Assembly (NCBI RefSeq): GCF_028641065.1 | Contig: NC_073404.1 | Span: 13,144,001-13,208,000, forward strand | Length of the DNA: 64,000 nt | Reading direction: 5' to 3' | From: Leucoraja erinacea | Taxonomy: Eukaryota | Part shown: piece after piece, positions 6,681 to 59,534 of the stretch | Layout of the letters: each line of letters opens with the position of its first letter | Position numbering within the stretch: the stretch's first letter is position 1 | Notes under the pieces: model-generated | What the model saw: only the letters and a program-made list of their open reading frames with translations | The model's database searches: none | Told to the model about the DNA's origin: nothing | Made by a program: the position numbers and the translations under genes

Positions 6681-6714
<34 letters not shown>

Positions 6715-15649: not shown

Positions 15650-16150
15650 CAGACGCAAGAAACAGCAGATGCTGGTTTATAAAAACAGACACCATGCGCC
15701 GTAGTAACTCAGTGGGTCAGGCAGCATCTCTGGAGGACATGGATAGGTGACATTTCAGGTCGGGACCATTCTTCAGACTGCAGAGACGCTTGTCTATCTT
15801 ATCCTTGCCCGTTCCTATCTTTGAAACAACCACCACTCTCCATCTCTCTCGTTTCTGGTTTATATTGTTTCGCTGGATCTCCAGGTTGCTCACCATTTTC
15901 ATAATCCTTCCCATTCCTACACTATCCTTTTTCCCCCCTGAGCCTCCTCCATTGGGAGAATGGGGCCACACACAAACTAGAGGAACAGCATTGCATATTT
16001 CGCTTGGGTAGCTTACAACCCAGCGGTATGAAGATTGAGCTATTCAATTTAGGGTAACACCTCCCTACTCCCTCTCTATTTCTGTGCCCACCCCAACCAT
16101 TTCATCCACAACCCCCACCCTTTCCCCTTCCCCTTCTGCCCCCTTCCACC
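15650..16150 (+). mobile_element. Penelope-like retroelement remnant (GIY-YIG endonuclease C-terminus preceded by an inverted terminal repeat)
   Basis: 15944-16057 translates to LLHWENGATHKLEEQHCIFRLGSLQPSGMKIELFNLG*, resembling the end of the PLE endonuclease. An inverted terminal unit with a hammerhead-like core lies at about 15650-15778. Confidence 0.7.
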
Positions 16151-19029: not shown

Positions 19030-22000
19030 GTGAGTGCGTCAGCGCCTGGTTTCCAGCGCGTGTTGTATCTGAAGGTGGGAGAGGTACAGTGCGTTGGGGT
19101 GCGCGGTGAGATCCCAGGCTCTTCCACACAGCCGATGTGCTCCTATACGTTTATGCCTGTCTCCTCTCCAGGCCAGGCACCCTGGGCCGTGATATGGACT
19201 CGAGGTTTTACCCTCTCCCTTTACACCTTGGTACTGGACCAATTTGTTTAGCCAATAATGTAGATGATTCTTGATTAGTACAGGTGTCAGAAGTTATGGG
19301 GAGATGGCAGGAGAATGGGGCTGGGAGGGAGAGCTAGATCAGCCATGATTGAATGGCGGAGTAGACTTGATGGGCCGAATGGCCCAAATCTACTACTATC
19401 CCGTATATGACCTTATGAGGACAACAAATAGTGTTTAGACTGGGGCAATGGGCCTGGCTGCTGCTATTCCCACACACTGCAGGGTGTGCAAGCTTTAGTT
19501 CTGACCCAGGCTCTCTCTCTCTCGCCTTCCTCCCAGGGAGCATGGCCAAGCGCCTGACCCAGATCGGCGTGGAGAATACCGAGGAGAACCGCCGCTTCTA
19601 CCGGCAGATCCTGATAACAGCCGACGACCGGGTCAAAACCTTCATCGGGGGAGTCATCTTCTTCCACGAGACCCTGTACCAGACCACTGATGACGGGACC
19701 CCCTTTATAAACATTATCAAAGAGAGGAACATTGTGGCAGGGATCAAGGTAAGCGGCCAGTGGGGCTTCTGCTGGGTGACCCTGGGATATGGGGAGAGTG
19801 AATGGAGCCGGTGAAGGCAATGGAAGGTAATCAGGAAGCCTATATTTCCCCGAAAGTCAGGATTCAGGGTACTGGGTATTGAGGACTTCCAGGGCCACTG
19901 GTTTTAACAGAGAAACATAGGAAATAGGACCCTCGACACACACACACCTCTCCACTGCAACACGGTGGTGACCCTCGGAGAAGTGTGTACAATATTTATT
20001 GCTTGGAACTCTCTCATCTCAAAGTTGGACTCATTTAGGGACTCAAATAGAGAGAGTACAGAGGAGATTTACTAGAATATTGTCTGGGTTTCAGCACCTA
20101 AGTTACAGAGAAAGGTTGAACAAGTTAGGTCTTTATTCTTTGGAGCGCAGAAGGTTAAGGGGGGACTTGATAGAGGTCTTTAAAATGATGAGAGGGATAG
20201 ACAGAGTTGACGTGGATAAGCTTTTCCCATTGAGAGTAGGGAGGGAAGATTCAAACATGATTTGAGAATGAAGGGACAGATGTTTAGAGGACATGATTTG
20301 AGAATGAAGGGACAGATGTTTAGGGGTAACATGAGGGGGAAGTTCTTTACTCAGAGAGTGGTAGCTGTGTGGAATGAGCTTCGAGTGGAAGTGGTGTAAA
20401 TACAGTACTCAATAGATAATATAACAAACAAACAACAAAAAAATAAGTTCAATCAATAAAAAAATATATTGCAGAAACAACAAAGCCCAAAGTCTCTAGT
20501 GCAACCCAGGCAGTTTTGTATTCAAGAAGAAACTGCAGATGCTGGAAAATCGAAGGTACACAAAAATGCTGGAGAAACTCAGCGGGTGCAGCAGCATCTA
20601 TGGAGCGAAGGAAATAGGCAACGTTTCGGAACGAAACGTCGCCTATTTCCTTCGCTCCATAGATGCTGCTGCACCCGCTGAGTTTCTCCAGCATTTTTGT
20701 GTACCCAGGCAGTTTGTAGTTTAGTTGGAGTTCGTAGTGTTCAATAGCACGGGTGATCTGTGCCATTAAATTCTTGTCTCTCTCCTTATCCCTTGATGCC
20801 AGTGCCCAACAACATTCTTTCTCTTGACCAAGCGTTGGGGTGAGGATGTCCTTCGCTGTTGCACATACACAGCGAGATCCCAGACTTTCACCAGGGCCCG
20901 GAGCCATTCGTGGGTCACTGCAAGGGAAAGCTTTCCATTCACTAGAATTGAATCAGTCCCATCAGAATGTTGCTTGATGCTTGTGACCAAGGGCAGGTTC
21001 TATTGTAATGACAGGGACTGGTTCTTTAAGAGTGTTGTGGATGAATGATGAATGTTAATGTTGCATGTGAACACTGGGGGGTTGAGTCGGACTAAGCTGT
21101 CGTGTATTTCCAGGTCGATAAAGGAGTTGTTCCCTTGGCTGGAACCAATGGAGAGTCCACCACTCAAGGTAAAGGATCTGTGCAATCTGAACGGGAGCCT
21201 TGACGCTGCTCCAAGCAGGCAGGCAGAGTACAGTGACGGAGGGCTGCTAGGGCAGCAGCGTCACAGCACCAGAGACCCGGGGTGCAATCCTGACCTCGGG
21301 TGCTGTCTGCGTGATGTTTGTACATTCTCCCTGCGACTGTGTGGGTTTCCTCCGGGCGCCCCTATTTCTTCCTGCAGACCAAAGAGAATATGTGTGGGTT
21401 TGTAGGTTAATTGGTCTCTGTAAATTGTCACGGTGCGGAAAGGGAGTGGATGTGGAAGTGGGATGCCATGGAACTAGTGTGAACAGGTGATGGAGGGTTG
21501 GCATGGACTTGGTGGGCTCAAGGGCCTGTTTCCATGTGGCATCCCTCAACTAAAACTAAAGACATATGGTGCCCAGAACTAGACTCCTTGACGTCCTTGG
21601 GCTTGGTGTCCTGATGCAGCCTCTCAACCCATAGCCTCGATCATCCCTCTGCCTCCACGGATGCTGATCTGTTGTGTTCCTCCAGGAGTTTACTTTTTGT
21701 TCCCCGCTCCTGTAATCTGTGCCCCTATTAATAATATCCGGGATCACAAATGATGTTTTAAACCACTTTCTCCTTGCCTGAGTTGTGCACTGTGTACCTA
21801 GACATCCCTGTTCTTTCATCCATTTTGGAGTTGTGGCCTAGTTAGAACACCAATTTCTCATCTTGACTCCAGAAACTGTGCTTGGGATTACATCCATTTG
21901 TTTACCACTTCCCTAAAACATTTCGGAAGCAATCCTCTACTCCCATAATCTTCAGACAGGCTGAAGAAGGGACGATAATGACTTGTTTTGTTCTTGATAG

Positions 22001-25000
22001 ATTAAGAACATGGAACTGTAGTGGACATGAACAGGCCTTTTGGCCTACAACGTCTGTGCCGAACATGCTGCCATGTTAAACTAATCTCCTTGTTGCCTGC
22101 ACATAATCCATATCCCTCTAGTCCCTGTATTGTGTAGTTCTCTCTCGCTATCCATTCCCCCCCACATTTGGACGCAGTAACTATGAGAACGGGCAGGGGT
22201 TCTGACACCTGAGTGTCTCCTATTCTGATCACAACACGTGGCTCTGTGCGAATTGTCAGCAGCTGGGAAAAGCTAGTTCTATTCTGATAACAAGAAACAC
22301 TGTGACTGTTCCACAGAGACGGGCTCCATTCCAGTTGGCTCAGGCTGCACCAGGATGTAGCTGGCTTTGACTCAGCATCAGCAGTCTGGTAAAGCAAAGC
22401 TCGTATGTTTACGAGCCAAGGGCATTTTTCAGAGATGCTCAAGGTGAAAAGTAATGAAACCAAACCTGTCCATAGAGGCAGGAGGATTGTGACGGGAGAG
22501 CAGAGGTTTAACATCTAGCTCACATGAACCAAGAAACACAATGAAGATTTCACAGCAGTTTAATGCCAGTCACACCTGTTTGATCCACGTTAAAATAGAA
22601 ACATACTCAATAACTATTCAAAAGCTCTTTGGGTAACGGATTCTAAAGATTCACAGCCTCCTGCATAACGACATTTCTCCTGGCCTTACGTGAAGGAGCT
22701 CATTCCTTCATCTCGAGACCCTTCCCCCAGTTCTTCACCCTCCTGCCAGAGAGAACAACCTCTGAGCAGGCAAAATGTGTTGGAAGGAACTGCTGATGCT
22801 GGTTTATGCTGAAGATAGACACAAAGTGCTGGAGTGACTCAGCGGGCCAGGCAGCATCTCTGGAGAAAAGGACTAGGTGATGTTTTGAGTCTGGACCCCT
22901 CCCCCCCTCTCAATCCCTCTCACTGAGAAGACCTTTCAACCGTAACTCCAAGTACCATTGACCAAGCCCACTATATGATCTCCACTGGATATCTTCCTTA
23001 CATTTTGAAATTAACCCAGTGAAACCAGACTGCACTACCCAGAGAGAGAACACACCACTCCTTCCTTGATCAAACAGCAAGGGCGGTCACAGTGGTGGTG
23101 CGGTAGAGTTGCTGCCTCACAGTGAATGCAGCGCCGGAGACCACGTTCGATCCCGACTACGGGCGCTCTCTGTACGGAGTTTGCACGTCCTCCCCGTGAC
23201 CTGTGTGGGTTATCTCCGAGATCTTCTGCTTCCTCCCACACTCCAAAGACGTACAGGTTTGTAGGTTAATTGGCTTGGTAAATGTAAAAATTGTCCCTAG
23301 TGGGTGTAGGACAGTTTTAAAGTGCGATGATCACTGGTCGGCGGGGACCCGATGGGCCGAAGGGCCTGTTTCCGCGCTGTATCTCTAAACTACACTAAAC
23401 ACCGGCACTGGTTCCACGTAGCCCTGTATCATTTATACAACATGGAATACCCTTTGCCAAAGTGACATTTGGTAAATTTGGAAGGAAATGTGATTGAAAA
23501 CTATAGAGAGACATTGGCAGGACATTTGGGAGAGCATCTGTTTATCTCTGCAGCTTGATGGTTAACAGTGATGTGTTTTGATTTTGAAGGCTTGGATGGA
23601 TTAGCAGAGCGCTGTGCTCAGTACAAAAAGGATGGAGCAGACTTTGCAAAGTGGCGTTGTGTCCTGAAAATTAGTGCAACAACCCCGTCTGCACTTGCAA
23701 TCTTGGAGAACGCCAATGTCCTGGCCCGATACGCCAGCATCTGCCAGCAGGTACAGTGAAGGAAGTTCAAGGGAGTGTGTTATATAGATCAGTACAGCAC
23801 AAGAACAGACCCTTCGGCACACAATATCCGTGTGGACAACTCCTCTGCCTGCCTGTGATTCATATCTCTCCATTACCTACATAATCCACGTGCCTATCAA
23901 AAAACCTCTTAAATGCCACAAGCCTATCTGCCTCGACCATCAACCCTGGTAGTGCAGTCTGAAAAAAAAACTTACCCTGCACATCTCCTTTAAACTTTGA
24001 CCCTCCTACCTTAAAACTCTGCCCTCTAGCCTTTGACATTTCTATTCTAGTGAAAAGACTGTCTACCCGATCTATCCACCATTTTATAAACTAGTATTGG
24101 GTCTCGCCTCAACCTCCAAAGCTCCAAAGAAAACAATCCAAGTTTGTCCAACCTCTCCTTGTAGCTAATGTCTTACAATCCAGGTAGTACTCTGCCAAAC
24201 CTCTTTTGCACCCTTGAAAAAGTTACTTTTATAACAACTAAACAGGTTCGCTTCTTAATAAACAGACAACACACAAACTGTTTGGTAGACCAGTTCAAAA
24301 CTTTACTTATTATCGGCCGATGGAAGGGAGGGAGAACTCCAGTCAAGTGACCAATATAGACACTTCACTGTCCTCAGTCCACTTCTCTGAACAACAGAAT
24401 TACATCGTATTATATAGTGTTTTTTTGTCACCTTAGCACATTCCACAGACATTAGTCATGGTCAGAGGTACAGGAAAATGAAGGTTTCTACAGAATGCAT
24501 CACATCAAAGGCATTTTGTCACAATCCCTTAGATCAGTCTAGCTTATCCTCTCTCGTCACCTCCTCCCTCATAAACATCGGACATTTGGTGCCAGGCATT
24601 TTACTTCTCAAATACATCAAAGAGATCTAGCTACCTCTGCTTCCTCTCTCGTCACTTGGGAGACAAATGTTATAGTTTTATTATCTCAATACACCGCAAC
24701 CTGAGGCAGGCCTAGACTTGCCTTTCTGTATTAATCTTCTGGAGAAAAGCCTGATTTGAGACTAAATATAAGCTGTAAGCTGGCCCAGGAACCAATTTAA
24801 TATCTTCTTGTATTTTTAACTTAATTTGGCTTTATCACCCTCTCCAATGTTCCCACATCCTTCCCGTAATGGGGCAATGAGATCTGCGCACAATACTCCA
24901 AATGTGGGATAAAAAGTCCTATAAAGTTGAAAGTAACTTTGTGGTTCTTGCACTAGCTGGAGCTGGAGTTAATGTTTGCCCCATTGCCATGTATGTTCTC

Positions 25001-28000
25001 ATCTCCTTCACTCTACAATCTGCTGCCAAAGGAGAAGAGTAGTGCAGATTCTCCATGGGTGCTCTTGGTAAATCTTGATGACATCTAATTTAAGATGCGA
25101 TGAGGCATGGGTGGAGGTAGTAGCGGAGGTGGCGGAGTGGTGGGTCAATAATGGAATTTGTATGTGGCACTGTGCTACACCAGACGGCAGCTGTCAAAAC
25201 CAAACCAGGCCAGTGCTGTTCACTGACCTGTTGACAGGCAAACAGTGACAGGGACAGCTTGAACGATGAACAAGTTACGAACTGTAGGCTTTACCATTCC
25301 CACACCATTTCCCATCTTTGTGTTCTAGAATGGCATTGTTCCCATTGTGGAGCCTGAGATTCTACCAGACGGCGAGCATGATCTGAAGAAATGCCAGTAC
25401 GTCACAGAAAAGGTGGGTCTGTACAAAGTGCCTGTACACCAGCGGTACCTGTGATCCCGGGCCATTCCAAATCTTTTTTTAGCTGCTGTTGGATGTTGAA
25501 CCAGAGACTCTTCTGTAAAATGGGAATGAGAGGAGGCAAACTCTACAAATGGAGGACAAATGGAACAATGTAAGGAGTTACAGAAAACAGTGGCCAGTGA
25601 ATGAATCTCATGGCAGAATTATTGCTTTGGACTCCCAAGTGAAGATTCATCACTGTCAATGTTTGTATCTGGGGTTTCCACCGCGTCCTCTGGTTTCCTC
25701 CATTTCTCAGGACGTGAGGTTTATAGGTTAATTTATAGACCTTTGTAAAATTGCCCCTCGTGGGTAGGAAATGTACGTTAAACTAACATTGGCCCGGTGG
25801 TCAGTGTGGGCTCAGTGGCACTGGAGGGTCTGTTTCCTTGCTATAGCTTTCAATCAAATGGAAGAATTTGACTCCAAATGTTGTCTGTCCATTTTGATCA
25901 GCAGATAATGCTGGACCCTCTCAGTCTACATTTTAGCCTGGTCTCGCTTCTCTCCGAGGGCCTGCCCTTCAGGAGTGGAGCAGAATGTTGGTACTTCCAC
26001 GTACCAAGCAATTAGTTGTTATTTAAAAAGTTATTGGAAAAAACAGTCTGTGAGAGATTTTCCTTCCCTTCCCATCCCATTGTCCCTGTATGTCTGTGCA
26101 GAATGATCTACTGATCAATTTGTGGCCAATTTGTGTCTTCTGATCTGAATCACAATGCAAACACTGGCCTGCGTGAACTTCTACCCATTTAATCTCCATC
26201 CCATAACGATAACTATGGTGGGAAGCAAAACCTTTCTCTGAACTAAGCCTTGGTAAACTATGCAATGCTCTACTCTTTGTGTTTTAGGTGTTGGGGGCTG
26301 TTTATAAAGCACTGAGTGATCACCATATTTACCTGGAAGGTACTTTGCTGAAGCCCAACATGGTGACTCCTGGCCATTCTTGCCCTACCAAATACAGCCC
26401 CGAGGAGATTGCCACTGCAACAGTTACTGCACTGAGGCGCACTGTCCCACCTGCCGTTCCAGGTATTTTGTTCATCAAGCTGTGGTGAGACGGGCATTTG
26501 CTTGTGACCTAACTGATATTAATATGGAGCAGGCTGGAGACACAAGGAAGTGCGGACGCTAGGATCTTGATCAAAACACACAAAGTGCTGGAGTAACTCT
26601 GAAGAAGGGTCCCAACCCGAAACGTTGCCTAACCATTCCCTCCACAGACGCTGCCTGACCCGTTGAGTTACTCCAGCACTTTGTGTTAATGAGGATCCGT
26701 GTGGCTATGCAGTTCCAATGAGTGGCTTTGCTGTTTAAAATTACACATTGGGTTTTTTTCGCTGTTTAATTTCTACAAACCTGACTTTGGTGTCACGTAA
26801 AAAGTGTAGATGTGTAAATGCTCGAGGGAGTGATTTCGACCAATTTTCCAGGGAACTTGGAAAATAGTAATTGTGGATCAAACTACACATCCAGTTGCCA
26901 GATTCATTCTCTGGCATAGGTTAGTTCCTTGCAGGGAACAATCTTGGCAAAAAAACTTACAGTTTATACCCTCTGTCAGCACTCCAAGTTTAAAATATTT
27001 TTAATAAATTTAAAAAACGGCACCCCTATGTCCTTGAGTTTCACAGACATGTTGCTAATAGCAGAATGGTACAGGCACAACTCAGACCTTGAGCTTACCA
27101 CCAGCCACAACATCTCCACAATCTTTCTGTCTTTCACAGAACCACTCTCTCCTCCTCCGATTGCTTGCTAGCTCTTGACCCACCTCACCGCTTCACCTTC
27201 CCTCTGCTCTTTCAATGTGAATGGTGAAAACCATTGACTGCTCATTTCCTCCCACAGTTGCTGCTCGATCCGATGGCTTCCTCCAGCAGATTGTCTGTTG
27301 CTTCACACTGTTATTGTCTGCTTTCTCCCAAGGAGTCACATTCTTATCTGGAGGGCAGAGTGAGGAGGAGGCCACCATCAACCTCAATGCTATCAATAAG
27401 TGTCCACTGCCAAAGCCATGGGCACTCACCTTCTCCTTTGGCCGAGCCCTGCAGGCCTCTGCGCTGAATGCCTGGGGAGGCGAGAAAGACAACATGCAGG
27501 CCGCACAGGATGTGTTCATGAAGCGTGCTGAGGTAACGGTGCTCTCTGGGAACGTGCCGTGGCTCCACAAAGGGTTCCTGGACCTGGCATTGTACCAGCA
27601 ACCGATGGTGCATGCCGAAGGAAACAGTGAATACATTGGGTGGGACACGGGTTTAATGAGGGACTGAGGTCGGGAGTCTGCCCTTTATCACCATTCACCA
27701 CCACCTGATCGTGGACATTTAGTTTACAGATACAGCATAAAAACAGGCCATTCGGCCCACCAGTCCATACTGACCATTAATCACCCATTCACACTAGTTC
27801 TATGTTATCCCAATTTCTGATGCACTCACTACACATTAGGGGTCAATTTTACAAAGGCCAATCAACCTACAAAATAGACAATAGACAATAGGTGCAGGAG
27901 TAGGCCATTCGGCCCTTCGAGCCAGCACCACCATTCACAGTGATCATGGCTGATCATCCACAATTAGAACCCTATTTCTGCCTTCTCCCCATATCCCCTG

Positions 28001-29430
28001 ACTCTGTTATCTTTAAGAGCTGTATCTAACTCTCTTGAAAGCATCCAGAGAATTGGTCTCCACCGCCCTCTGAGGCAGAGAATTCCACAGATTCACAACC
28101 CTCTGTGTGAAAAAGTATTTCCTCATCTCGGTTCTAAATGACTTACCCCTTATTCTTAAACTGGCCCCTGGTTCTGGACTCCCCCAACATCGGGAGCATG
28201 TTTCTTGCCTCCAGTGTGTCTAAACCGTCAATAATCTTGATATGTTTCAATAAGATCCCCTCTCATCCATCTAAATTCCAGAGTATGCAAGCCCAGCCGC
28301 TCCATTCTATCAACATAGGACAGTCCTGCCATCCCGGGAATTAACCTAGTGAATCTACGCTGCACTCCCTCAATAGCAAGAATGTCCTTCCTCAAATTTG
28401 GAGACCAAAACTGCACACAATACTCCAGGTGTGGTCTCACTAGGGCCTTGTACAACTGCGGAAGGACCTCTTTGCTCCTATACTCAATTCATCTTGTTAT
28501 GAAGGCCAACATGCCATTCGCTCTTTTCACTGCCTGCTGTATCTGCAGGCTTACCACACGTATTTGGAAGGAAACTGAAGCAACGGGAGGAAACCCGTAG
28601 GGAAATCGTAGGGAGAACGTGGAAACTCCACACAGACAGCACCTGAGGCCTAGATCAAACCTGGGTCTCTGGTGCTGTGAGGCAGCAGCTCTATTAGCTG
28701 TGCCACCCTAATGATAATCAGGTCTGCTCCAGTTATTGCTTTACTGACTCTTTGAAAAACCATTTACCTTACTAAATCAGCAACTAAATCACCATGAAGA
28801 GTCACAGTGCCCCTTGTAGTACTTCACAGGAGAACCATTAGAAGCAGACATTGATACTGAAATAGATACTGAAATAGATGGTCAGAAGCTTGGTTTAAGA
28901 CAGAGGTTTGATGGGTATCCTTAAAGCAGGGAATTTTGAGTTTGGGTTTTAGCAAATGAAAACATGATCACCAGTGAAAATGAGATGAACGAGAACACCA
29001 GCCACAAAACGGGATGTCCCCGAAGGACAAGATGCTGGCGGAGCAGATATAAATAGGACGGGCAATAGGCTATGAAGGGAGTGATATGAACAGAATGAGA
29101 ATTTTAAAATGGTAACTGCTGCTGTACCAGGGAGTTTTCCAGGGTGAACATGCACAGGGAGTGGGGGTGTGGGCCTGGGTTGCCAACTAGGAGAACAGGA
29201 ATATTTTACATGCCCCGTTCGTTATACGTTGGTTTTCGCCAGTGGTCGGCAACTGCATTGTTCTGGGCTTTTTCTATGTTTCAATCGCCTTTCTCTTGTT
29301 TCAGGTTAACAGCTTGGCCTCCCTTGGGAAGTACGAGCCAAGCATTGAGCCAAGCACTGAGGGTGAAGGTGAAGGTGAGGGTGAAGGTGCAGCCAACCAG
29401 TCTCTCTACATAGAAAATCATGCTTACTGA
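18918..29430 (+). CDS. ALDOC: Fructose-bisphosphate aldolase C, complete, 374 aa; join(18918..19029,19537..19748,21114..21168,23590..23750,25329..25412,26288..26462,27333..27532,29305..29430)
   Basis: Class I aldolase motifs are intact: [27 protein letters not shown], Schiff-base [17 protein letters not shown] and C-terminal NHAY. Exon sizes 112/212/55/161/84/175/200 follow the vertebrate aldolase structure. The MTHQ start, SLYI.NHAY end and SPAG5/PIGS neighbours point to the C isozyme. Confidence 0.96.
19537..19748 (+). CDS. ALDOC: ALDOC coding exon 2
   Basis: tcccag|GGAGC...ATCAAG|gtaagc; [19 protein letters not shown]...IVAGIK. Confidence 0.95.
20045..20395 (+). mobile_element. CR1 LINE RT C-terminal fragment
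   Basis: [43 protein letters not shown]; contains an internal 36-bp tandem duplication. Confidence 0.85.
20521..20705. mobile_element. Palindromic Penelope-associated element with target-site duplication
   Basis: Near-perfect hairpin flanked by acccaggcagttt(t)gta at 20504-20520 and 20703-20718. Confidence 0.8.
21114..21168 (+). CDS. ALDOC: ALDOC coding exon 3
   Basis: ttccag|GTC...CAAG|gtaaag; [19 protein letters not shown] (55 nt). Confidence 0.95.
21245..21558 (+). mobile_element. V-SINE (HE1-like)
   Basis: B-box-like gggtgcaatcc, V-domain, agggcctgtttcc...aactaaa tail. Confidence 0.7.
23080..23400 (+). mobile_element. V-SINE (HE1-like), young copy
   Basis: tRNA head with B box gttcgatccc, V-domain, gggccgaagggcctgtttccgcgctgtatctctaaact tail. 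Confidence 0.85.
23590..23750 (+). CDS. ALDOC: ALDOC coding exon 4
   Basis: ttgaag|GC...CAGCAG|gtacag; [27 protein letters not shown]...YASICQQ. Confidence 0.95.
24215..24837 (-). mobile_element. Solo LTR inserted into a CR1 fragment
   Basis: TG...CA ends (TGAAAAAG...CTTTATCA) and 4-bp duplication CCCT. It splits the CR1 motif gcaccct|ctccaa. Minus-strand TATA-like and AGTAAA signals. Confidence 0.7.
25329..25412 (+). CDS. ALDOC: ALDOC coding exon 5
   Basis: ttctag|AAT...GAAAAG|gtgggt; [28 protein letters not shown]. Confidence 0.95.
26288..26462 (+). CDS. ALDOC: ALDOC coding exon 6
   Basis: ttttag|GTG...CCAG|gtattt; contains the Schiff-base lysine (LLKPNM). Confidence 0.95.
27333..27532 (+). 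CDS. ALDOC: ALDOC coding exon 7
   Basis: cccaag|GAGTC...GCTGAG|gtaacg; [40 protein letters not shown]. Confidence 0.95.
27873..28552 (-). mobile_element. CR1 (HER1-like) LINE 3' fragment nested in a V-SINE
   Basis: Minus-strand [43 protein letters not shown]; aatagac tail repeats; SINE halves at about 27718-27872 and 28555-28706. Confidence 0.85.
29305..29430 (+). CDS. ALDOC: ALDOC last coding exon
   Basis: tttcag|GTT...TAC TGA; [41 protein letters not shown]. Confidence 0.95.
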   Translation, partial: VNSLASLGKYEPSIEPSTEGEGEGEGEGAANQSLYIENHAY

Positions 29431-30193: not shown

Positions 30194-32362
30194 CAAAGGG
30201 AACAAACCCTAGTATTATTGTCTATACTCAATTTAATGAAGAACTTTTAATTTCATTTGCGGTTGATGCAGAAACGGCCTGACCAACATTGCTGCTTTCT
30301 TAAACCTTGTGTTGAATGAATGAATGAGTGAATGGATGATACTTTATTGTCACATGTGACAAGTCACAGTGATATTCTTTGTTTTGCATACCCCAAGGTA
30401 TGCAAAGAGTCGCCACACATACGAGTCGATAAAGTTACGTATCCCATTTTAACACAAACAATTTTTAACACTTTCCATTTGTCACCACTCTCCATAAAAC
30501 AAAATCTTTCTTCCCAACTACTGCCTCTGTGCTGTTCTCCAATCTTTCCTGCCACTCTCGTCTTCTTTGAGTGTCCTGGACCCGTTTCTCTTCCCACAGG
30601 TGCTGCCTGACCTGCCGAGTGTTTCTTCCACTGTGTGTTCAGGTTTCCAGCGCCTAGTATTTGATCTTCACTTGACATTCATCCCTTCACTTGATGCCCT
30701 GTTGACACAGAGAACTGTTAATAAAGCCACAGAAAAATCCTGGTAGTTGTCGTGTCTCTGGGTCCAACCCTGTTCACATTGTATGATCCCACCATTCTAC
30801 ACTGGCCACTTCTCTAGGTTTTGCTAGATCTGATGTGAACTGTGGTGCTGCTGAGGCTCTTGAAAGATGCCCATGAATTCCCCGATGAATTGTTATAGCA
30901 TGGGTCAATGCAAGCAGCCCTGTGCTTAAATGACAGTTGCATCTGCCAAATCCTAATCTGTGCAGGTTTAGTGATGCCTGCCATTAGTAATCATGACTAA
31001 TTCTACACATGAGTAAATTATTATCATCTTTATTCAGATGCTTTGATTCCCATTTTCTTTGCCAGAGGCAAGCTCTGTCTAATTCCAAAGAACCGTTCTA
31101 TTGGACAGTAAAAATAAATGTTTCCTCACGAGAATTGTCAGTGTCTATTATCCATGTAATGGGAGGGAGTCAATATCACCAGCTATTTGTTTACTGATCA
31201 GGGGGACACCATATCAAGCGATAACAAGCAGGGAACAGAGTTATCTTAGTTTAGTGTTTTGGAGTTCTGCCAGTCTCATTGAGGGCAGTGTCAATGTTTT
31301 CTGTCACTTTAAACTGTTCTCAATGGAACAGAAGGGAATTTGCAAGCTTTTGTTGAATGTTTCTTTGTTTGGCCCTTTCCTGTGGTATTTAGTCTCTGCT
31401 GTTCGTAAATGAGTGTATCCTCCAGTGTTGCCCAAACATACTCCATGCTTTGGAGTGTATAGGTAGTTCTGCTATAAAGGACTTTTTAATAGCTACAATA
31501 GCTCATTTTTGTTGCGTTAAAAATACTAAAGGCTGTATATGTTAATATAGTGCCATTGCACAATTGTCACAATATAAGTCTGATGAAAGGTCCCGATCTG
31601 AAACGTCACCTATCCATTTTCTCCAGGGATGCTGCCTGACCTGCTGAGTTACTCCAGCACTGTCAATAGGAGTGATTTCTTGCAAATTTTAATGGCCATC
31701 TGTGGTAAAACTGACAAGCTGCATTCTTATAATACAACAATGTGTTGTTGTTGGCTCCCCGACTTTTTTTTGTGCCAATTCGACTTGTTTTCTGCTTGTC
31801 AATTTCCAAAGTAACTTTTAAGTGACTCTCTGGATCATGTTATAATTAATTTGGTCCATGTAATACAATAGCATCCCCCCTAATTCATCAGTGGCATTAT
31901 ACCCAGTTAGTGTTATTGAAACATGAGTTACAGCAGAACAACCTGTAACTGGTTTGAACATTGAGCCTCCCAAGTGAGTTTGGATATTATTTCCTATTCT
32001 TGTTTCGTCCATGGATGAAACAAATTGTTTATAATATAAAAACTGATTTAAAGAATAGTGAGCCTTAATGCCTCCTCTGCCGTTCAGTAAGACCATGTCT
32101 GATCATTTACCTCAATGCTACTTTCCTGTACTAATAACCATGTGTCTTGATTCTCTTAATAACTAAAAATCTAAAAATCTACCTGCACGAATGAGCCGCT
32201 ACAGCCCTCTTGAGTTGGGAATTCCATGGATTTACCGGTTTGTGGGTGAAGAAATTTATTCTCATGAGTCAAGTGTTTAATTGTCATGTCTATTGGCAAT
32301 GGAAAAATTAGATTCTTACTTGCTGTTGTTTAACAGGGCCATTAAAGTAATAACACACAAGG

Positions 32363-32779: not shown

Positions 32780-33770
32780 AGATCAAGTCCTCAGTAGATT
32801 GTAGACATCCTGGTTCATTGATGCGTTCTGGTTTGGGAACACTTGGATTGTGTTAATGGGAACACACTCCTCCACAAATTTTGTTCTGAAGTTGGTAACA
32901 ACCGTGGCATATTGTTCAGGTCCCTGAACCTCGCCCAGTCTACCGACATCACGTGAACACAAGGTTACTCCACTGCCTCACCTGTCCAGCTCTACACAAC
33001 CCTCTCCACTGGAGCTCAGCTCATCAGTCACTGAAGAAAGAGCACAGCCAGCTAATCACACACGATGAGGGCGAGGGATGGAGTGATAGGAATCTTTGAT
33101 GGTAGAGTTGCAGTGGTCAAGAGTATTTGATCCTCTGGTGCTGCAGGACTTATGGGGGTGGTAGTTTAGAAGTGACTTTGTTAAACTAGCCTTGTTGAAG
33201 ACTCGGCTGTGATGGGGAATGCTGTCTGTTGACCATGGCATGCAACTCTTCCAGTGCCAGTCGAGCATCTGTCTGGGGAGGGTCATAATGACGGTGGTGA
33301 AATCCCTTTGGAGATAGCAAGGACGGCACTTCACTGCTAGATGTTCCAGGTGCGTCAGAGTAGGGGTAGCACAGGACTGGTAAGTTTGAACACTACGAAG
33401 AGTTCACCATGAGGCAGACACTGACACCTTCCTCTTTTCTCAATGCATCTGCCCTGTCTGTGCAATCTTCAGGCTGAGTCTCAAGAGTTAGGGGCGAGTC
33501 ACATTTCAGTGAAACAAAGGGCACAGCCTTCCCTCATGTCCCTTTCGTAAAGAGCTCTTGCCCTAAAGTCCTCAATCTTATTTTCTAGGGTTGGCTGCAG
33601 GTAAGAATGAAGATCGACAGAAAATGCTGGAGTAACTCAGCAGGGCAGGCAGCATCTCTGGAGAGAAGGACTGTGTGATGTTTCGGGTCGAGACCCTTCT
33701 TCAGAAGACTACATTGGCCAATAGGATGCAAAATGGGGGCGGGGTCGTATTCCCAAGGGTCTCAGTGCCT
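32780..33770 (-). mobile_element. Degenerate LINE endonuclease-region fragment (Rex1/Babar- or L2-like)
   Basis: Minus-strand translation KCRPCYLQRDFT...FNKASL...STRGSNTLDHCNSTIKDSYHSIPRPH resembles an apurinic endonuclease domain; interrupted by a hammerhead-bearing element at about 33610-33704. Confidence 0.6.
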
Positions 33771-34452
33771 CGTTGCCACTTCCAGAAACACTACTCACTG
33801 TTTATATAAGCATGGGTTTGGGAACTGCATTACTAACAAGAGATTGCAATATTGTTAATACATTTAAATGGTCCACCAGCCAGTCTGCGCAGTACTAATC
33901 TTTTCATCTCTATCCTGATTGCTTGACTTATTAATTTGACCTCTGGTTTTAAAGATGCCAGCATCAACATCAGCTGCATGTCTACACAGTCAAACACTGG
34001 AGGGATTTAGACAATAGACAATAGGTGCAGGAGTAGGCCATTTCGAGCCAGCACCGCCATTCAATGTGATCATGACTGATCATCCCCAATCAGTACCCCG
34101 TTCCTGCCTTCTCCCCAGATCCCCTGACTCCACTATCTTTAAGAGCCCTATCTAGCTCTCTCTTGAATGTATCCAGAGAATACTTTCAGTGTTTCCATGA
34201 GATCATCTCTCATTCATCCCCACTCTCGATGAAGTCCAGTCCCGGTCTGTGATCTTTCCATGCACAACAAATGTGCCATTCCTGAAATACAACCTGGTGA
34301 ACCTCTGCAGCACTTCCTTTATCACAAGTACATAACGTCCTCAGTGATGGAGGGTAAAACGGTTTCCACATAACATTCCTGATATGGTCTCACCAGGCTA
34401 GGGTAAGGTAAAGAGGCGTTAATAAATGTGAACCAGGATACTGAATTCAGTG

Positions 34453-34584
34453 TTTAAGAAGGAACTGCAGATGCTGGAGAATCGAAGGTACACAAAAAAG
34501 CTGGAGAAACTCAGCGGGTGCAGCAGCATCTATGGAGCGAAGGAAATAGGCAACGTTTCGGGCCGAAACACTTCTTCAGACCCT
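34453..34584 (-). mobile_element. Penelope-associated element, single arm, 12-bp target-site duplication
   Basis: Flanked by ctgaattcagtg (34441-34452 and 34585-34596); minus strand CTGAAGAAGTGTTTCGGCCCGAAACGTT. Confidence 0.8.
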
Positions 34585-40400: not shown

Positions 40401-43400
40401 GTCCTAAAGCAGCAAATATTGTTTAGAGCTATCAACGGCATAATTGTATCTTATTCTGGTCGCTTAACATAAGGAAAGAAGAGTTTATTTAGTTTATCAT
40501 TGTCATGTGTAGCGAGGTACAGTGAAAATATTTTGTCGCGTGCTAACCAGTCAGCGGAAAGTCAATACATGATTACAGTTGAGTCATCCACAGTGTACAG
40601 ATACATGATAAAGGAAATAACATGAATAATGATTAATGCAAGCCAGTAAAGTCAGATCAAAAATAGTCTGAGGTAGACAGTAGTTTAGGACTGCTCCCAA
40701 CTACTGTTGGTAGGGTGGTTCAGATATCTGATAACAGCTGGGAGGAAACTCTCCCTGAAACTGGAGGTGTGCGTTTTCGCACTCCAGAGAAGGCCTCCGT
40801 GGGTATGCAGGGCAGATTTAATCGAAGAGGAATTGTGATTTAAAAAAAATTTTTATAAATACTGCAAATCTGATATAAACAGAAAATGTTGGGTATGTTA
40901 GGCAGCACCTGTGAAGAGAAAAAACAGATGAAAAGCCATCGACTTGAACAGTTAGCATAGGAAGAAACTACAGATGCTGTTTTAAACCGAAGATAGACAA
41001 AAAACTGGAGTAGCTCAGCGGGTTGCCCAGCACCTCTGGAGAAAAGGAATAGGTGATCTTTTGGGTCTCAACCCGAAACATTACCTAGTCTTTTTCTCCA
41101 GAGATGCTGTCTGACCCGCTGAGTTACTCCGGCTTTTTGAGTCTATCTTTGACGTGAACTGTTAGTTCCCTTTTTACTATAATGGTCCCAGAGGTGAGGT
41201 ATTTCAGCTGGAAGATTGGGATTGAAGCTGAGTTTGTCCTCCCTCGAGCAAAGACTGTGAATTGTAGTTGTTCTCATCCGCAGATGGTTCGAGAGCCAGG
41301 GAGATGTAAGCATTTGGGCAGAAGCTGCACGGGAGGGACGGGGGGAATTTCTTAAACTGAAGGAATAGTTTTGCTCTGAAATTCACTGTTGAAAGGAAAT
41401 TGGATGGAACTTGAAAGCAATCAAGTTGTTGGCGAAGTTGTTTGAGAATGGGATGAACAGAATTGCTCCACTAGAAGACTTGAGGAGCCAAATAACCACT
41501 ACACGTACAGTAGCAACTGTCTTTCTATGGAGATACAAGGAACTGCAGATGCTGGAATCCCTAGCAAAACACAAAGTGCTGGAAGAACTCAGCGGGTCAG
41601 GCAGCACCTATGGATGGAATTGTTGGGTGATGTCTTGGGTCATGACCCTTCTATCATCCTCATCATGAATTTCAAAAGTAATGTGCTTTGGGGCAACAAG
41701 GAGTTCTAGAGTTGTGGATCTTTTCCATCATATCAACGATGGTGGGCAAAGGGGATGGATGGATTTCCAGGGATGGGGAAATGTGATGGAGAAAATATAA
41801 TGGAGTTTTGTTCTTAGTGACTGCCTTGATCTGGGAATTGGAATCGGCAGGGGCGGGTGAGGCACGAGTTTATAGAGATTAATATGGTAGCATTTACTGT
41901 AATAGGACTTCTCCAAAAATCTTTATTGTGTTTAGTTGATGCTTTGCAACTGAGGTGCCCGCAACTCAAAAATCTATTTTTATTTGTTCAGAAATATACC
42001 GAGGAAAGCTATCCACCAGCTGTATCACTGTGCTGATGATACTGGTTGGGCTGCCTCTCTGGTGGAAGACCACAGAGACCTATCGTGCCTCGCTGCCTTA
42101 CAGCCAGATCAGCGAGCTAGACCTTCTCTTGGTAAGGGTTCATTATGTTGCTAGTATCATGGACTTGTGCATCTGTCTGCATGTGCAGCTTTGCGGTAGC
42201 ACTGTGTTTAATGACAAATGCCTCATCTGTAGAGTGAGCCCCATAAGCTGTGCACCACAGGTATCGACAATGTAGGTGAATCCAAGTAGGTCAGCCAGAC
42301 TTAACATACTGGTGTCTGGGTTAGGAATTGAAAGGTAATAATAATAATAATAAATTTTATTTGCGGGCGCCTTTCAAAGTCTCAAGGACACCTTACAGAA
42401 ATTAACAAGAGAGAAAAAGCATATAGTCGAAGTAAAATAAATAATAAGGACATCACCAGTACACAAATTAAAGACAGAATTCGCTCCAAAGACAAAAAAA
42501 TCAAAAACACAATGTGAAGAGAGAGCAGCGGCAGCTAAACCACGCCAGCGTCCACTCTCCCTTCCGACAGCCATCTTGGACACAAACTAACATATTCACA
42601 TTACACACAAAAAACATCCCCCCACAATGGTTACCACTGTGGGGGAAGGCACAATGTCCAGTCCCCATCCCCAGTTTTCCCAGAGTCGGGCCTATTGAGG
42701 CCTCCACAGTTGCCTCTACGGAGGCCCGATGTTCCTGGCCGCTCTGGCCAGGTGCTGTTGCTCTGTCGTCGGGAGAGTCCTCTCAGCGGCTGGGCCACCT
42801 GGAACGGCCGCTTCCAAACTGGGGACCGCGGCTTCCGAAGCCGACAAGGCCGCGCTGGTTTGGAGTGTAGTTTGGAGAAAGGTAGTGGAGAGAGTTTTGA
42901 ACAGGAGTAGTGTATGCCTCGATAGTGTATAATAAGAATCTTTTTCACATGGTAGGGGTGTCTTGGACATAGGGCATGGGTTTAAGGTGAGAGGGAGCAG
43001 ATTTATAAGGATTGGAAGGGAATTTTTAACACTTGGTGGAGGCAAAGACTCTCATAGCATTCAAGCAACCTTTAGACATGTACTTAAATCCTTGTGGCAT
43101 AGAAGGCCACAAACTAATGTGGGTCAATGGGGTTAGTTTAGGAAGGTGCAATTGGTGGAATAGTGTGTATATCTGCTGTACGATTGTATAACTGTGTTTT
43201 GATTGCTCCCTGTAGCTGGACATAAGTGTGCCAGTGGAGGTGGTCTTTGCGAAAGGCACACTGACAGCAGAGCAACAGAAAAAGCTGCTGCCACAGACCC
43301 AGTTCAGCCAGAGGCAGAATCAGCTGGATGGTGAGTGACTAGCCGGGTCGAGTTGAGTTCATTGTCGCATGCACAAGTATGGTCAGATACAGGGACAGTG

Positions 43401-46400
43401 AAGATAGACACAAAATGCTGCAGGAACTAAGCGGGTCAGGCAGCATCACTGGAGGAAAGGAATAGGTGACTGAGAGCTCTCAGACTGAAGAAGGGTCTCG
43501 ACTCAAAACGTCACCTATTCGTTTTCTTCAGAGATGCTGCCTGTCCCCCTGAGTTACACCAGTTTTTGTGTCTATCTTTGGTGTAAACCAGCATCTGCTT
43601 GTTTCTTTATACAGATACAATGATGCTTACAGATGAATCACATGCACATAGCCTCAGACAGGACACAAAATATGAATTGTAATTGGTGCCAATTACATAT
43701 AAATTCCATAAGAGTTAAAGGAAAAAGACTGTAAAAAATAACGGAAATAAATCCATAGTAGTGCAAGAGGTGGTCAGTCGCGGTCCATTGCTGAGAGGAT
43801 TAGCGTTGTGCAGGTCTGTTCAAGAACCTGATAGTTGTAGGAACATAGTTGTTCTTGAAACTGGACTTTAGGCTTCTGTATCTCCTACCCGATGGTAGCA
43901 GCGACCTGAGAGGGTAAGAGGACATGGCCTGGATGGTGGCGATCCTTGATCATAGTTGCTGCCTTCTTGAGGCAGCACCTGATGTAGACGCTTTCGAGGC
44001 TGGGGGGGGGGGGGGGGAGAGAGGGCTGTGCCTGTGATGGACTGGGCTGAGTCCACCGCCCTCTGTAGCCTCTTGTGTTCCTGTGCGTTGGAATTGCTCG
44101 GCCAGGCCATGATGCAACCAGTCAAGAACAGAAAACTGAATACTGAATCCGAGTGAGATCTTGCTCTCAGTTTGGTTTATTGTCACATGTACCGAGGTAC
44201 AGTGAAAACCTTTGTTGCGCCCTCAACAAGGTTGGCCCTCAAACGTTTCTGTGTGTTACTGATGCTTGAACGAGCGAAACTGAACATTTACCAGCACCAT
44301 TTCCAAGACTCATTCCGCCCCCAAGCAAGAGTGAGTCGCCACCAGGCAGGTGGTGTTTTGACCAGTTAGTTGATCACGGTCAGATTGCTGGGCTCAGTGA
44401 CCCAGACCTGCACCTGCCCTCCACTCTCCACTTGTTGACCACCTGCACCTGCATCAAGTCAGGCCAAGTTTAGCCACAGTTCTCTGTGTGGGCACTGAAT
44501 CTGAGGAGCTTGCTGTCAGCAGTAGTATTACTGTTGTGTCTGTATCACCATCTGATCCTTGTACAAATTTGTTCCGTTCCATTTAATCCTTGTTCTGTCT
44601 TACCTTGCAGATAAAACAGGGTTCAAGTATCGGTACGAGAAGACGTACAGAGCTGTAACTGGGTTAGAGCAAGATGCCATAATGAGCAAAAATGTAGAAG
44701 GTACGGGTTCTTTGCCATGAATCTATTTTCCTTCTCCGACTGATGTTATAAACCTTAAATAGAATGAAACCTAAAAAGGTAAGAGCAGAAGTAGGTCATT
44801 CAGCGTTTGAACCTGCTCAGCGATTCAGTACAATTGTGGCTGCTTCTTCATTGGTGCCATATTCCCATGCTCTCCCAAATCTATCATTCAGGTTATACCT
44901 TGTTTTCGATTTATGTTTTTCCATACAAGAATGTGTCCATATCGAGCTGTCTCCATCATGTGTATGCCTACTCGTTTAACTTTCCCAAATGGCCCTGATG
45001 CCTCCATTCGTCGTCCGTACAATCCCACCCAGTGTCTTCAGCAAACAGAATACGTGAGACCATAAGATGTAAAGGCAAGAAAAAGGCCATTCAGCCCTTT
45101 CAAGTCTCATTTGCTGTTCTCCTTAACAATGTTTTCCTGCCCTTCCACGCATTCCTAGATTCCCTGAATGTAACCTCAGTTCTGCAGTATCCGAGCTGAT
45201 TGTCCCCTCTTGTATTTTCAGAGGCAGTTGTCACTTTGTCCCAGGTTTACGAGAGTCCGGCGGGGTCGGTGGTGATATACGTGGTGCCTGCTGATTCCCA
45301 GCTTCTGCCGGACGAGGCCACGGTTTACATCGGGAAGCACCGGGCCAGCTTCCTGCGCTCCCCTGTGACTGCGTCGCACAGTGTGGAGGACGTACTTCAG
45401 GACATCGACGACCGTGTGGAGGATATCCTGCAGACCGTGTCCTTCACCGACGACATGGTGGCTGCGGCATTGTCCAGCCGCGTTCCCTCAGGGAGTTCCG
45501 GCACTGACAGCTTCACCACCAGTATTCCAGCGTTCAAATCCAGCCTCGGTGAGGACAGTGTGCTGTTTTCTTCCAATTGTTTGTCCTCACCTGCACTGAG
45601 GGTGTGCATTACAGCTGCAAGCCATACTCCAGTGCTTTGCCCAAGAATCGAGGCAGTGGGGGCACGATTTCAACCTAATAACACATAACGATGGAATCAT
45701 GCTGTACCATGTTCATCACCACTGAAGCCTAAACATGAATAGGCTGATATCATTAGGTTAAGCTGCAACTCCAATTAAACTGGGGATCGTCATTGCTGAT
45801 TTGAATCCTCTCGGCTAACACTCAGAGCAACTCAACATCTTGCACAAACATTGGTCATATTGCTTGGGGTGGTTCTTGGGAAGGAAGGTTGTATAGCAAC
45901 AGAGACTCCGCAGAGATTCTCCATCCTAGAATGGAGATCTGTATCACTGGAACGTAGGAGGCTAATGGGTTATATAGAGACGTTCATAAAATGATGAAGA
46001 GCATAGACAGGATTGAGTGATATTTCTCAGGCTCGGGGAGTCTAGAACCAGAGGGCACAAGGTTTACGGTGAATGGGAGAGATTTAAAGGGGATCTGAGA
46101 GAGAGTTTTCACACAGAGGGTGGTGAATAGATGGAGCGAACTGGAGACTCCATCAAAGGAAGTGGTGGGGCCATACTATTACAGTAAAAGGCATGTTAGC
46201 TTGGAAATGCTTAAGGTCCTATCAATTACATTATTGGGCCGAATTTTACTCTGGATTTAAAGTAACTGTAAAGGGTTAGGTACATGGTTACGCCCTGGTC
46301 AGGTGTAGCTTCAAGCCTCAGCAAGTGAACCGTGATGGTCATTGGGGGTTTGTCTGTATATTTATTTATGGAGAAAGTAAACGTTATTAACTTATCAATT

Positions 46401-49400
46401 ACATTAATAATTACTATTTAAACAGTAACCATGGTCAGGTGCAGCAAGTGCCGTGATGGTCATTGGTTTGTCTGTATATTTATTTATTGGAGATCGCTTG
46501 AATTTCTGGGGGGGGGTTCTACCCTTTTTCAGGCTATGAAATCACCTTCAGTCTGTTGAATCCTGATCCCAAGTCCCACGATGTTTGCTGGGATATCAAG
46601 CGAGCTGTGGAGAATTACGTGCAGCCCTTCCTGGACAAGCTGTCCTTTGTTGCCAACTTTTCCGTGGACTCTCAGGTAGGACTGAGTTGGCTGCACCTCC
46701 TGTAACCCTGCATCAGGCAGTGTGGGGTTGGACACGTGCAGGACTGCAGTGCTGCCTGTCAGGGGTGGCGGGAGAAGAGGGAACCACAGCAAATCAACAC
46801 CATAGATACCTTTTGATTGATATAATCATCCTCCCTCAGCCTCATATTGTCGCAAAGCACTTGGCAATCGATGAAGAGCAGACACAGTTGTAATGGAGGG
46901 AATTTGACAACCATCCATCATCATTAAACAACAGATAAATTAATAATCAGATCACTTCTTTTTGAAGAAGGGTCTCGACCTGAAACGTCAGTCTGAAGAA
47001 GACTCTCGACCCAAAGTCACCCATTCCTTCTCTCCAGATATGCTGAGTTTCTCCAGCTTTTTTTGTCTATCTTCACTTCTTTAACAGCTGTCCACTGGGG
47101 CTACATAAGCAGTACAGATGATGATTATATCATGTAATAAGATCTTGTAATTCAGCACAATATTAGACTGCCAGGTGCAGGGTTACTATCCTTCAACTGA
47201 AAGCACAATATCTAAGCCTTAGGATTATGTAGGAGTTGGGGAAATGAGATGGGATTTTAAAGATGATCTCTCACTTCCATGGTCTTCAGTATGGTCACAA
47301 GATTTTCAGTTTTGTGTGCACTAAGGTATCCTAACTCTTTGTGACTCATGCCCTTCCTTTTGCAGATACTGTATTATGCAGTTCTCGGCGTGACACCGCG
47401 CTTCGACAAGTCCTCGTCCAGCTTCTCATTGACTGAGGAGAGCTTACCCCATGTGATCAATCCAGTTGAAGCCAAACTCGGTAAGAATGTTAGTCTGCTC
47501 GCTCAATAAACTTAATGGACATAAGCATTTCAGTCTTCGCAGGCTGATCGGAATGAACTAGTGCAAGGGAGCTGGAAGTGGATCTGGGAGCTGGATTCGG
47601 TACTAGCTTCAGATTACATAGGCGCATGAAGAGGATAAGTTGCCAGGCTCTGGGGAAACAACAAGCAAATCAGACTGATACAGTTTGTCAAAGAGGTGGT
47701 GACGTGAATGACCCGATCTTCAGATTCTCGTGTTATCAGTGTTTAATATTTACTTAATAATATTTTTTTCTTATTTTTTATTCCAGTTTTCCAGTATTTG
47801 ATTGTTTTACTTTTTTACTCCAGTATTGGCTGAAGTTGTTTTAACCACGATTGCAGCATGAATGAGATTAGCTCAGCCTCTATACGGTTTCATTCATTGT
47901 CGATCTCTGACGGGTTAAATAATGCCAGTTCCCATTGTGAACCCCTCCCTGAATCACTATTCTCCATCTCCTTAGTGAGCACAGAACTGTTTAGGAAAAT
48001 GCTGGAAATTTTCAGCTGGTCAGGCGGTATTAGTGGGAAGAGAACCAGAGGCAACCTGGTAAACCTGTTCTTACACATGGCTGATGTCTTTGGTGAAATC
48101 AATTCTCTTAATTCTAGTTATTGGCACATTGACTGTAGTTGGAAAAGAATGGGTTGCGTGTGAGATGGTAATTTTTGAATGCTCAGTCTGCACATTGTTA
48201 ACAAAACAAACAATCATCAGAAGGCAGATTATTATCTGAATGGTGTCAGATTGGTAAAACGGGAGGTGCAACGAGACCTGATGTCCTTGTAGATCAGTCA
48301 CTGAAAGTAAGCAGAGCGTTCAAGAGGGAACTGCAGATGCTGGAAGATCGAAGGTACACAAAATTGCTGGAGAAACTCAGCGGGTGCAGCAGCATCTATG
48401 CAAGAAGGGTTTCGGCCCGAAACATCGCCTATTTCCTTCGGAAGAAGGGTTTCGGCCCGAAACATCGCCTATTTCCTTCGCTCCATAGATGCTGCTGCAC
48501 CTGCTGAGTTTCTCCAGCAATTTTGTGTACTGAAAGTAAGCATGCAGGTACAGCAGGCAGTGAAGAAAGCTAATAGCATGTTGGCCTTCATGTTGAGAGG
48601 ATTTGAGTTTAGGAGCAAGGAGCTTCTACAGCAGTTGTACAGGGCCCTGGTGAGACTTCACCTGCAGTTTTGTGTGCAGTTTTGGTATCTTGATTTGAGG
48701 AAGGACATTATTACTATTGAGGGAGTGCAGCAGGTTAATTCCCAGGATGGCGGGACTGACATATGATAAGAAATGGGTTGTATTCACTGGAATTTAGAAG
48801 GATAAGAGGGGTTTTTATAGAAACATAAAATTCTTCAGGGATTGGACAGGCTAGATGCAGGAAAAATGTTTCTAATGTTGGGGGAGTCCAGAACCTGGGG
48901 TCACAGTTTCAGAATAAGGGGTAGGCCATTTAAGACTGAGACGAGGAAAAACATTTTCACCCAGAGAACTGTGAATTTGTGGAATTCTCTGCCACAGAAG
49001 GTAGTGGAGGCCAATTCACGGGATGTTTTCAAGAGAGAGTTAGATTTAGCTCTTAGGGCTAAAGGAAGCAAGAGATAGCAGGAATGTGGTACTGATTTTA
49101 GATGATCAGCCATGATCATATTGCTGGCTCGAAGGGCCGAATGGCCTACTCCTGCACTTATTTTCTATGTTTCTATCTGGGATTTATACTGTGGGTAAAG
49201 ATGATTGCAGGGGGGGCAGGGAGAAGCTGCCAGTGGACAAGAAGCCTGAATGACCCTTCTTTCTGTTTGTCGCCAGGGTCCAATGTTGCTTCGTCCTATC
49301 CGGTTTTAAATTTTCTTCTGTATGTACCTGAATACTCTCACTCTCCTCTGTACATCCGTGACAGCAGTGGATCTCCCCTCGAATCCAACGCCTTTCACAG

Positions 49401-59344: not shown

Positions 59345-59534
59345 TGTTTAAGAAGGAACTGCAGATGCTGGAAAATCGAAGGTACACAAAAATGCTGGAG
59401 AAACTCAGCGGGTGCAGCAGCATCTATGGAGCGAAGGAGAAAGGCAACGTTTCGGGGGCCGAAACGTTGCCTCTCTCCTTCGCACCATAGATGCTGCTGC
59501 ACCCGCTGAGTTTCTCCAGCATTTTTGTGTACCT
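59345..59534. mobile_element. Palindromic Penelope-associated element nested in an older copy
   Basis: Near-perfect hairpin centred on tttcgg-ggg-ccgaaa; older family arms on both sides. Confidence 0.75.

Follow-up and report, generated by a model that had tools for sequence, protein, structure and literature searches.

A dispersed hammerhead-bearing repeat of Leucoraja erinacea as the probable pLTR of a young Penelope-like element

The window analysed here (64,000 nucleotides of Leucoraja erinacea contig NC_073404.1, whose own positions are used below) contains a short dispersed repeat with a hammerhead-like motif, and raises the question of what this repeat is, how its copies arise and whether the hammerhead is genuine. 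At 31580-31607 on the forward strand the letters, read directly, are CTGATGA-A-AGGTC-CC-GATCT-GAAA-CGTC, in agreement with a preliminary description made from the sequence alone. All parts of the minimal type I hammerhead that it had recognised (CUGANGA, an extra nucleotide, helix II, GAAA, a palindrome and UH) are present. The core CUGAUGA with an extra A between positions 9 and 10.1 (31580..31587) is followed by helix II, in which A-U, G-C, G.U and U-A pairs precede a C/G closing a 2-nt loop (31588..31599), and by GAAA, the palindromic ACGU and C17 (31600..31607). Helix I is limited to 2 bp (GU at 31578-31579 with AC at 31608-31609, outer limits 31578..31609) and the predicted cut falls between 31607 and 31608. 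The ACGU of this copy is predicted to form helix III only as a dimer; for the young variant of the repeat the computed energy of intermolecular pairing is -5.7 kcal/mol. From the sequence and the profile match, the focal copy (31577..31662, forward strand) is a tail-less solo pLTR of an older subfamily, and it starts at the common boundary, AGT preceding CUGA.

The minimal hammerheads of Penelope-like elements (PLEs) described by Cervera and De la Pena 2014 (PMC4209133) share with the skate family the type I core, a nucleotide after A9 (between 9 and 10.1), G10.1-C11.1 in most cases, the palindrome 15.2-16.2 and a short helix I; they are mostly solo copies, also occur as opposite-strand pairs, and have low activity even as dimers. 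Helix I has 2 bp in the skate family versus the 4-5 typical of that set, D. virilis also having 2 bp, and helix II has 4-5 bp here. The extra A and the short helix I, earlier entered as caveats, are thus normal for the class (PMC4209133), and the suggestion that ACGU fits PLE hammerheads is borne out by a published class trait (PMC4209133). The motif class is already described, and the skate family adds another PLE member to it. Our literature search found no paper on this PLE family in cartilaginous fish, a group unnamed in the parts of PMC4209133 consulted; Dfam, Repbase or supplements may list the family.

A profile built from nine window copies gave 51 matches in the window at a threshold of E<=0.1; with >=20 bits required there are 43, and 12 head-to-head pairs are among them. 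The repeat reported earlier is thus confirmed, and its estimated number, about 25 or more, was too low. A descriptor consisting of the core, helix II of >=3 bp, GAAA and UH finds 5 of the 43 intact (mean 0.08, maximum 1, in 200 dinucleotide shuffles), and among these five the focal copy alone keeps the ACGU palindrome plus the 2-bp helix I. The others lie at 13188..13287 (forward, without helix I and with an internal deletion), 26597..26695 (forward, in sense within an aldolase intron and preceded by a short inverted fragment, the helix I of its core at 26599 being 1 bp), 33607..33705 (reverse, palindrome broken to CATC) and 59837..59933 (reverse, palindrome and helix I broken). The letters quoted previously at 13191, 26599, 33681-33704 (reverse) and 59907-59930 (reverse) agree with ours. 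The UUCG-type example near 48407 stands only in part: the hairpin GGGT-TTCG-GCCC is present in a 40-nt duplication (48402-48480), and an intact CUGA is absent from it. The window also holds a young-subfamily solo pLTR with a tail and a 12-bp target-site duplication (34448..34582, reverse; 95.6% identity to the full-length element), and a fragment (15876..16056, forward) that resembles, at 71–78%, the 3' UTR and the endonuclease (EN) end in older copies of the PLE.

The host genes around the copies are a class I aldolase (coding exons 19536..29430, forward, from the first matched exon to the stop) and PIG-S (coding exons 42024..56500, forward); as to the putative SPAG5 of the preliminary description, there are coiled-coil-like exons upstream on the forward strand. 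The preliminary description placed the copies inside host genes, which holds for aldolase and PIG-S, whose exons are confirmed, but not for the focal copy, which is in no intron: it lies between these two genes, 2.15 kb past the aldolase stop, four candidate polyadenylation hexamers lying between the stop and the copy. Copies within aldolase (3 forward, 2 reverse) and PIG-S (5 forward, 3 reverse) are too few to judge a strand bias. The last aldolase exon contains a TGAAGG hexamer repeat encoding a GE run (29358-29389). None of the 33 matches of an Rfam scan at E<=5 was to a hammerhead family, a negative of little weight for minimal hammerheads. Its microRNA matches, all of sub-gathering score, fall on head-to-head pairs (2977-3085, 20573-20688, 35142-35230, 57223-57342, 59372-59539 and 60781-60875), which would fold into long hairpins within host transcripts. 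Palindromic pairs of this kind produce false microRNA matches, and it should likewise be kept in mind that hammerhead-like matches in the introns of sharks and rays are, for the most part, decayed pLTRs.

The origin of the repeat was sought through the GIY-YIG endonuclease. A genome search yielded 20 loci, 14 of the repeat's PLE family and 6 of another PLE family, and in 10 of the 14 the repeat lies 3' of the endonuclease stop, on the same strand and about 90-260 nt away. At L046 a 766-codon RT-EN frame and then the repeat are enclosed by one 12-bp duplication; its N-terminal part gave 150 scored matches, many in frames of more than 750 codons. Among 20 long-ORF loci fetched, the repeat is found at the 3' end in 19, which upholds the Penelope link proposed earlier; partial tandems, with units of about 3.99 kb, account for five of the 20, and an inverted copy of the repeat stands at the 5' end of several loci. 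These elements are young: compared with 12 copies, L082 is 99.6–99.8% identical to seven, 97.7–98.7% to four and 90% to one. RT and GIY-YIG are joined in a single 754-aa frame with RYIDD and a C-terminal EN (domain scores for L082: RVT_1 E=9e-7 and GIY-YIG E=0.006, both just under the Pfam cut-offs). Homologues of the parent protein at E<=1e-50 number 2,302 out of 7,999 scored, the closest named relatives being from Mobula (73%), Chiloscyllium (69% and 65%) and Rhincodon (67%). Its RT-EN linker, CGRSRCNTC, reads C-x4-C-x2-C and, since CX2-5CxxC marks the Neptune and Nematis clades (Craig et al. 2021), is of Neptune/Nematis type, fitting either clade. An upstream frame of about 410 codons followed by C-rich runs (L082:1909-3450) has no Pfam match. 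As the join between this ORF and RT varies among copies in the C-runs (perhaps through assembly slips, a frameshift or an intron), full coding integrity of the parent is only putative. The tail of 30-40 bp on one end is typical of EN+ PLEs, and the one-end tail, the inverted 5' copy and the target-site duplication of such elements are all found here. Judged by its sequence context, the repeat is the pLTR of the putatively autonomous EN+ PLE itself.

The family is very large. In a random sample of the 2.19-Gb genome (sixty 10-kb stretches at round coordinates) the profile gave 274 matches (58, 78 and 138 per 200 kb) covering 3.7% of the sampled bases, which extrapolates to roughly 0.6-1.0 million copies. 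A 39-nt stretch of the young subfamily has 43,535 exact matches in the genome, and the intact-core pattern has 71,004, reversed controls giving 0; the corresponding figures for coelacanth and Xenopus are 4,000-9,000 (PMC4209133).

Whether the hammerhead is a genuine fold was addressed both across distant PLEs and within the genome. The distant set comprised 80 metagenome loci, of which 55 matches stop before the EN end and 2 are too short; 13 of the remaining 23 carry the same motif in sense, 89-135 nt 3' of EN. Their helix I shows U-A/A-U and C-G/G-C swaps, and pairs in 29 of 30 cells (two local copies included) versus 4-12 when slid, the rows representing about four independent sequence types rather than 15. 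These two-sided changes argue that the hammerhead fold is under selection in the parent elements, cleavage itself being only predicted. Within the genome, 143 5'-complete copies were compared with the commonest letter of their own cluster. Divergence of the core amounts to 9.2% of cells versus 9.5% downstream, so that the core of dispersed copies decays neutrally, at the background rate. In the same copies helix II breaks freely, with A.C breaks and G.U swaps at similar frequencies, and differences between subfamilies affect only one side of a pair. The earlier statement that pairing is kept in the hairpin is contradicted by these counts and reflects a selection of conspicuous examples. Stem II covariation within the genome was accordingly discarded in favour of neutral decay, and the covariation check divides: no two-sided change is seen in the main subfamilies of the genome, while helix I swaps occur across distant PLEs. 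An older variant with a 13-nt A-U-closed hairpin was set aside as evidence, its 60 matches being of mixed origin; L207, L209, L213 and L224 represent this variant, with CUGAUGA and other downstream sequence.

The motif might alternatively be a vestige, kept for promoter function or protein binding, and not cleave even in the parent. Such a vestige would accord with the mere 2 bp of helix I, with the one-sidedness of changes in the main subfamilies, with the folding of a young copy, where a competing structure (-10.6 kcal/mol) beats the hammerhead (-4.5 kcal/mol), with the lack of RNA ends seen at the cleavage site, and with the failure of 8 of 9 Xenopus dimers to cleave (10.64898/2026.07.22.740005). 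It is nevertheless scarcely credible in view of the exact core and the covarying helix I found among PLEs that share about 50% protein identity, and of the anole PLE hammerhead, which cleaves once its protein is added (PMC11167929); moreover, D. virilis has the same short helix I (PMC4209133).

We also asked where the short copies begin and end. Numbering is such that C of CUGA is +1 and the predicted cut +28/+29, and 94 young copies were found via a downstream anchor. The 5' ends of 42 of them lie at -6..+3, with a peak at -3/-2, and at this boundary are spread over about nine positions, with microhomology. A further 24 lie beyond -20, extending into the PLE UTR or EN, scattered without a peak, and one more at -9; 6 fall at +4..+8, 13 in helix II, 1 at +21..+26, 1 at the cleavage site (+27..+31) and 6 beyond +31. 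The 3' ends are found at +91-96 (50/94), at +124-137 (37/94) and at other positions (7/94). Of 48 short solos, 30 are bounded by target-site duplications of 8-15 bp, and a clear extension into the PLE UTR is seen in only 20 of 141 5'-complete copies of the random sample. At window position 46962-47075 a fragment ends exactly at the predicted cut and is followed by a copy starting from -3, an arrangement that a 3-nt microhomology can explain.

These ends resemble the products of the anole PLE, in which the tail is defined by two internal RT start sites, both target strands are primed, uncleaved RNA is the main template and the ribozyme needs the PLE protein (PMC11167929). We consider it likely that the short copies of the pLTR of this young and abundant PLE come from RT starts at two sites and run-off on uncleaved RNA. 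RT would start at an internal site about 95 or 130 nt into the RNA, copy an uncleaved transcript as far as its 5' end, which would lie just ahead of the hammerhead, and run off there. The 5' boundary would then be a transcription start inside the pLTR. We take the TCAGTCT found at this boundary to fit the initiator consensus YYANWYY. In Penelope, both the promoter and the start site lie inside the pLTR (PMC2377424, PMC6765202). The ribozyme would matter only in the parent's own RNA, as a protein-assisted dimer; the dispersed copies, in turn, are probably inert side products of PLE copying. An untemplated cap-like G was counted by hand in genome listings (32/100 at -3 and 44/100 at -2); in an independent set of 60 loci the signature was seen in 10/23 (p=0.14, not significant), and as support for the 5' end it was put aside as a suggestive post hoc observation that failed replication.

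The same pLTR identity is compatible with another origin of the boundary, namely a stall or break point of RT on a longer read-through RNA, where RT would drop off before the C-rich UTR or at the hammerhead structure or a bound protein. The C-rich UTR does lie upstream of the boundary, heavy 5' truncation is known in PLEs (Craig et al. 2021), and both the unconfirmed cap signature and the spread of ends with microhomology would suit such a stall. It is rendered rather unlikely by the concentration of ends in one 9-nt window, those beyond -20 lacking any peak, by older subfamilies with a different UTR that stop at about the same place, and by rare head-to-tail joins that restart exactly at -3/-2.

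Run-off on uncleaved RNA also offers a description of the head-to-head pairs, of which the window holds, among its 12 and without assigned strand, one joined in helix II with one tailed arm (20557..20702), two joined in the helix II loop with one tailed arm (2954..3107 and 59383..59531) and one with broken cores and the 40-nt duplication inside it, in a PIG-S intron (48355..48527). A single duplication encloses the whole pair at 20557-20702 (12 bp) and at 48355-48527 (14 bp). Among 69 pairs examined the tail is present on one arm in 54, on neither in 15 and on both in 0, versus 10.8 doubly tailed pairs expected under independence; 14 of the 15 pairs with no tail come from the mostly older random set. 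Other PLEs are known to carry inverted 5' pLTR copies, with a palindromic junction and a tail on one side only (PMC3846280). Here both target strands probably prime, one per RT start site; the two cDNAs would then be linked 5' end to 5' end, in many cases via helix II, which is self-complementary.

A different system altogether had been proposed in the preliminary description, in which a separate retrozyme cuts and circularises in host pre-mRNAs. Retrozymes consist of tandem units, each with a hammerhead (10.64898/2026.07.22.740005; PMC7229834), and no tandem units each with a complete hammerhead are found in the 64-kb window. Most copies are solo or head-to-head, any same-strand neighbour being seen in 13 of 317 matches. 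With tandem pairs missing, 5' ends avoiding the cut and the core decaying neutrally, that proposal is not sustained. In the corresponding general form, a separate non-autonomous retrozyme or SINE would be excised by the hammerhead, circularised and copied in trans by the PLE. A few derivatives of this sort do exist, namely the dimers L366 (203 nt) and L313 (99 nt) and an array, L367; in addition, one contig from a presumed-RNA run joins +195 back to -1, and retrozymes, including those of one chondrichthyan, are reported to derive from pLTRs (10.64898/2026.07.22.740005). The array L367 (G000:C1:24092397-24095419) has at least 13 units of 177-209 nt that combine pLTR and tail with the beginning of the upstream ORF, three of these units having an intact core, and is the best candidate for a true retrozyme. 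Yet such a junction has 6 matches genome-wide (L368 and L369 read as host flank) against the 71,004 intact cores, and no same-strand intact pair within 400 nt occurs among 31 cores in 600 kb. Moreover, a circle cut at UH should not yield copies starting 31 nt upstream of the cut, and the sequence of the short copies is also that of the ORF-bearing pLTR. As an account of the bulk family, a separate retrozyme is very unlikely. At L004:1225-1585 there are five head-to-tail units of about 66 nt with a CUGA core in the first only.

Three RNA runs of 2026 with the same species label were consulted, 1–5% of each being used; these oligo-dT or single-cell libraries are weak for ribozyme ends. Reads accumulate over the pLTR, with some 1,300 on each strand in one run, X24, and 86% of those placed on it continue into dissimilar sequence. 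The upstream ORF is almost without coverage (depth 0-23), and the parent transcript is thus unseen in these somatic-type libraries. The RNA ends at the UH site that the preliminary description led one to look for did not appear: begins or ends of reads formed no pile-up at the cut in the three raw-read runs, whose libraries are poor for such a test. Among the joints listed, none is a circular joint at the cut, the libraries being not circle-enriched.

The closest described mechanism is that of the Anolis Poseidon element PAc (Frangieh et al. 2024, PMC11167929), with which the skate family shares two RT start sites about 35 nt apart, a tail set by the start sites, a template that here too is probably uncleaved, and no RNA ends at the cut. 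The two differ in that PAc belongs to the Penelope/Poseidon clade and its ORF starts in helix II (PMC11167929), whereas the skate parent has a linker of Neptune/Nematis type and its first ATG about 165 nt downstream of the core; the one-arm-only tails are counted in vivo here. With canonical EN+ PLEs (Arkhipova et al. 2013, PMC3846280; Craig et al. 2021) the family shares partial tandems, the palindromic inverted 5' pLTR and the tail on one end, the duplications of those elements being 8-10 bp (PMC3846280). Unlike in canonical EN+ PLEs, solo and inverted pLTRs exceed long copies by orders of magnitude and have one shared 5' boundary. Non-LTR retrozymes (Cervera and De la Pena 2020, PMC7229834; Li et al. 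2026, 10.64898/2026.07.22.740005) have the type I hammerhead and PLE origin in common with the skate family but are defined by tandem hammerhead units and circular RNAs, whereas the bulk of the skate family is not tandem and has few such derivatives.

These elements can be joined in one tentative reading, to which we give slightly less than even credence, combining asymmetric use of the start sites by a dimer, mass production of leader-primed solos and the birth of retrozymes by re-priming. A protein dimer would always use the two RT start sites asymmetrically (hence no doubly tailed pair among 69). Priming in the 5' leader of promoter-initiated RNA could have given rise to hammerhead-bearing, SINE-like solo promoters by the several hundred thousand (about 3–4% of the genome), without a separate SINE. 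Occasional re-priming of the run-off cDNA might give rise to true retrozyme dimers and arrays. If this reading is true, the genome preserves, as fossils and in very large numbers, the outcomes of the PLE transposition reaction. The value of the family lies in its scale and tractability, since, in a very young PLE of a vertebrate whose readable insertions number tens of thousands, the formation of tails and inverted pLTRs, any use of the ribozyme and the origin of retrozymes can be counted in vivo and tested in vitro.

A second PLE family (L011-L013, L045; L015, L016, L028) has identical 759-codon RT-GIY-YIG frames, without match to the pLTR repeat and without a canonical hammerhead core, a GUGAUGA...GAAA look-alike being present 3' of the stop. 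Its frames run directly into (CCCTAA)n telomeric repeats near contig ends (G000:C23:3558, C37 and C39 for L011-L013 and L045), which makes it a candidate telomere-targeted EN+ PLE.
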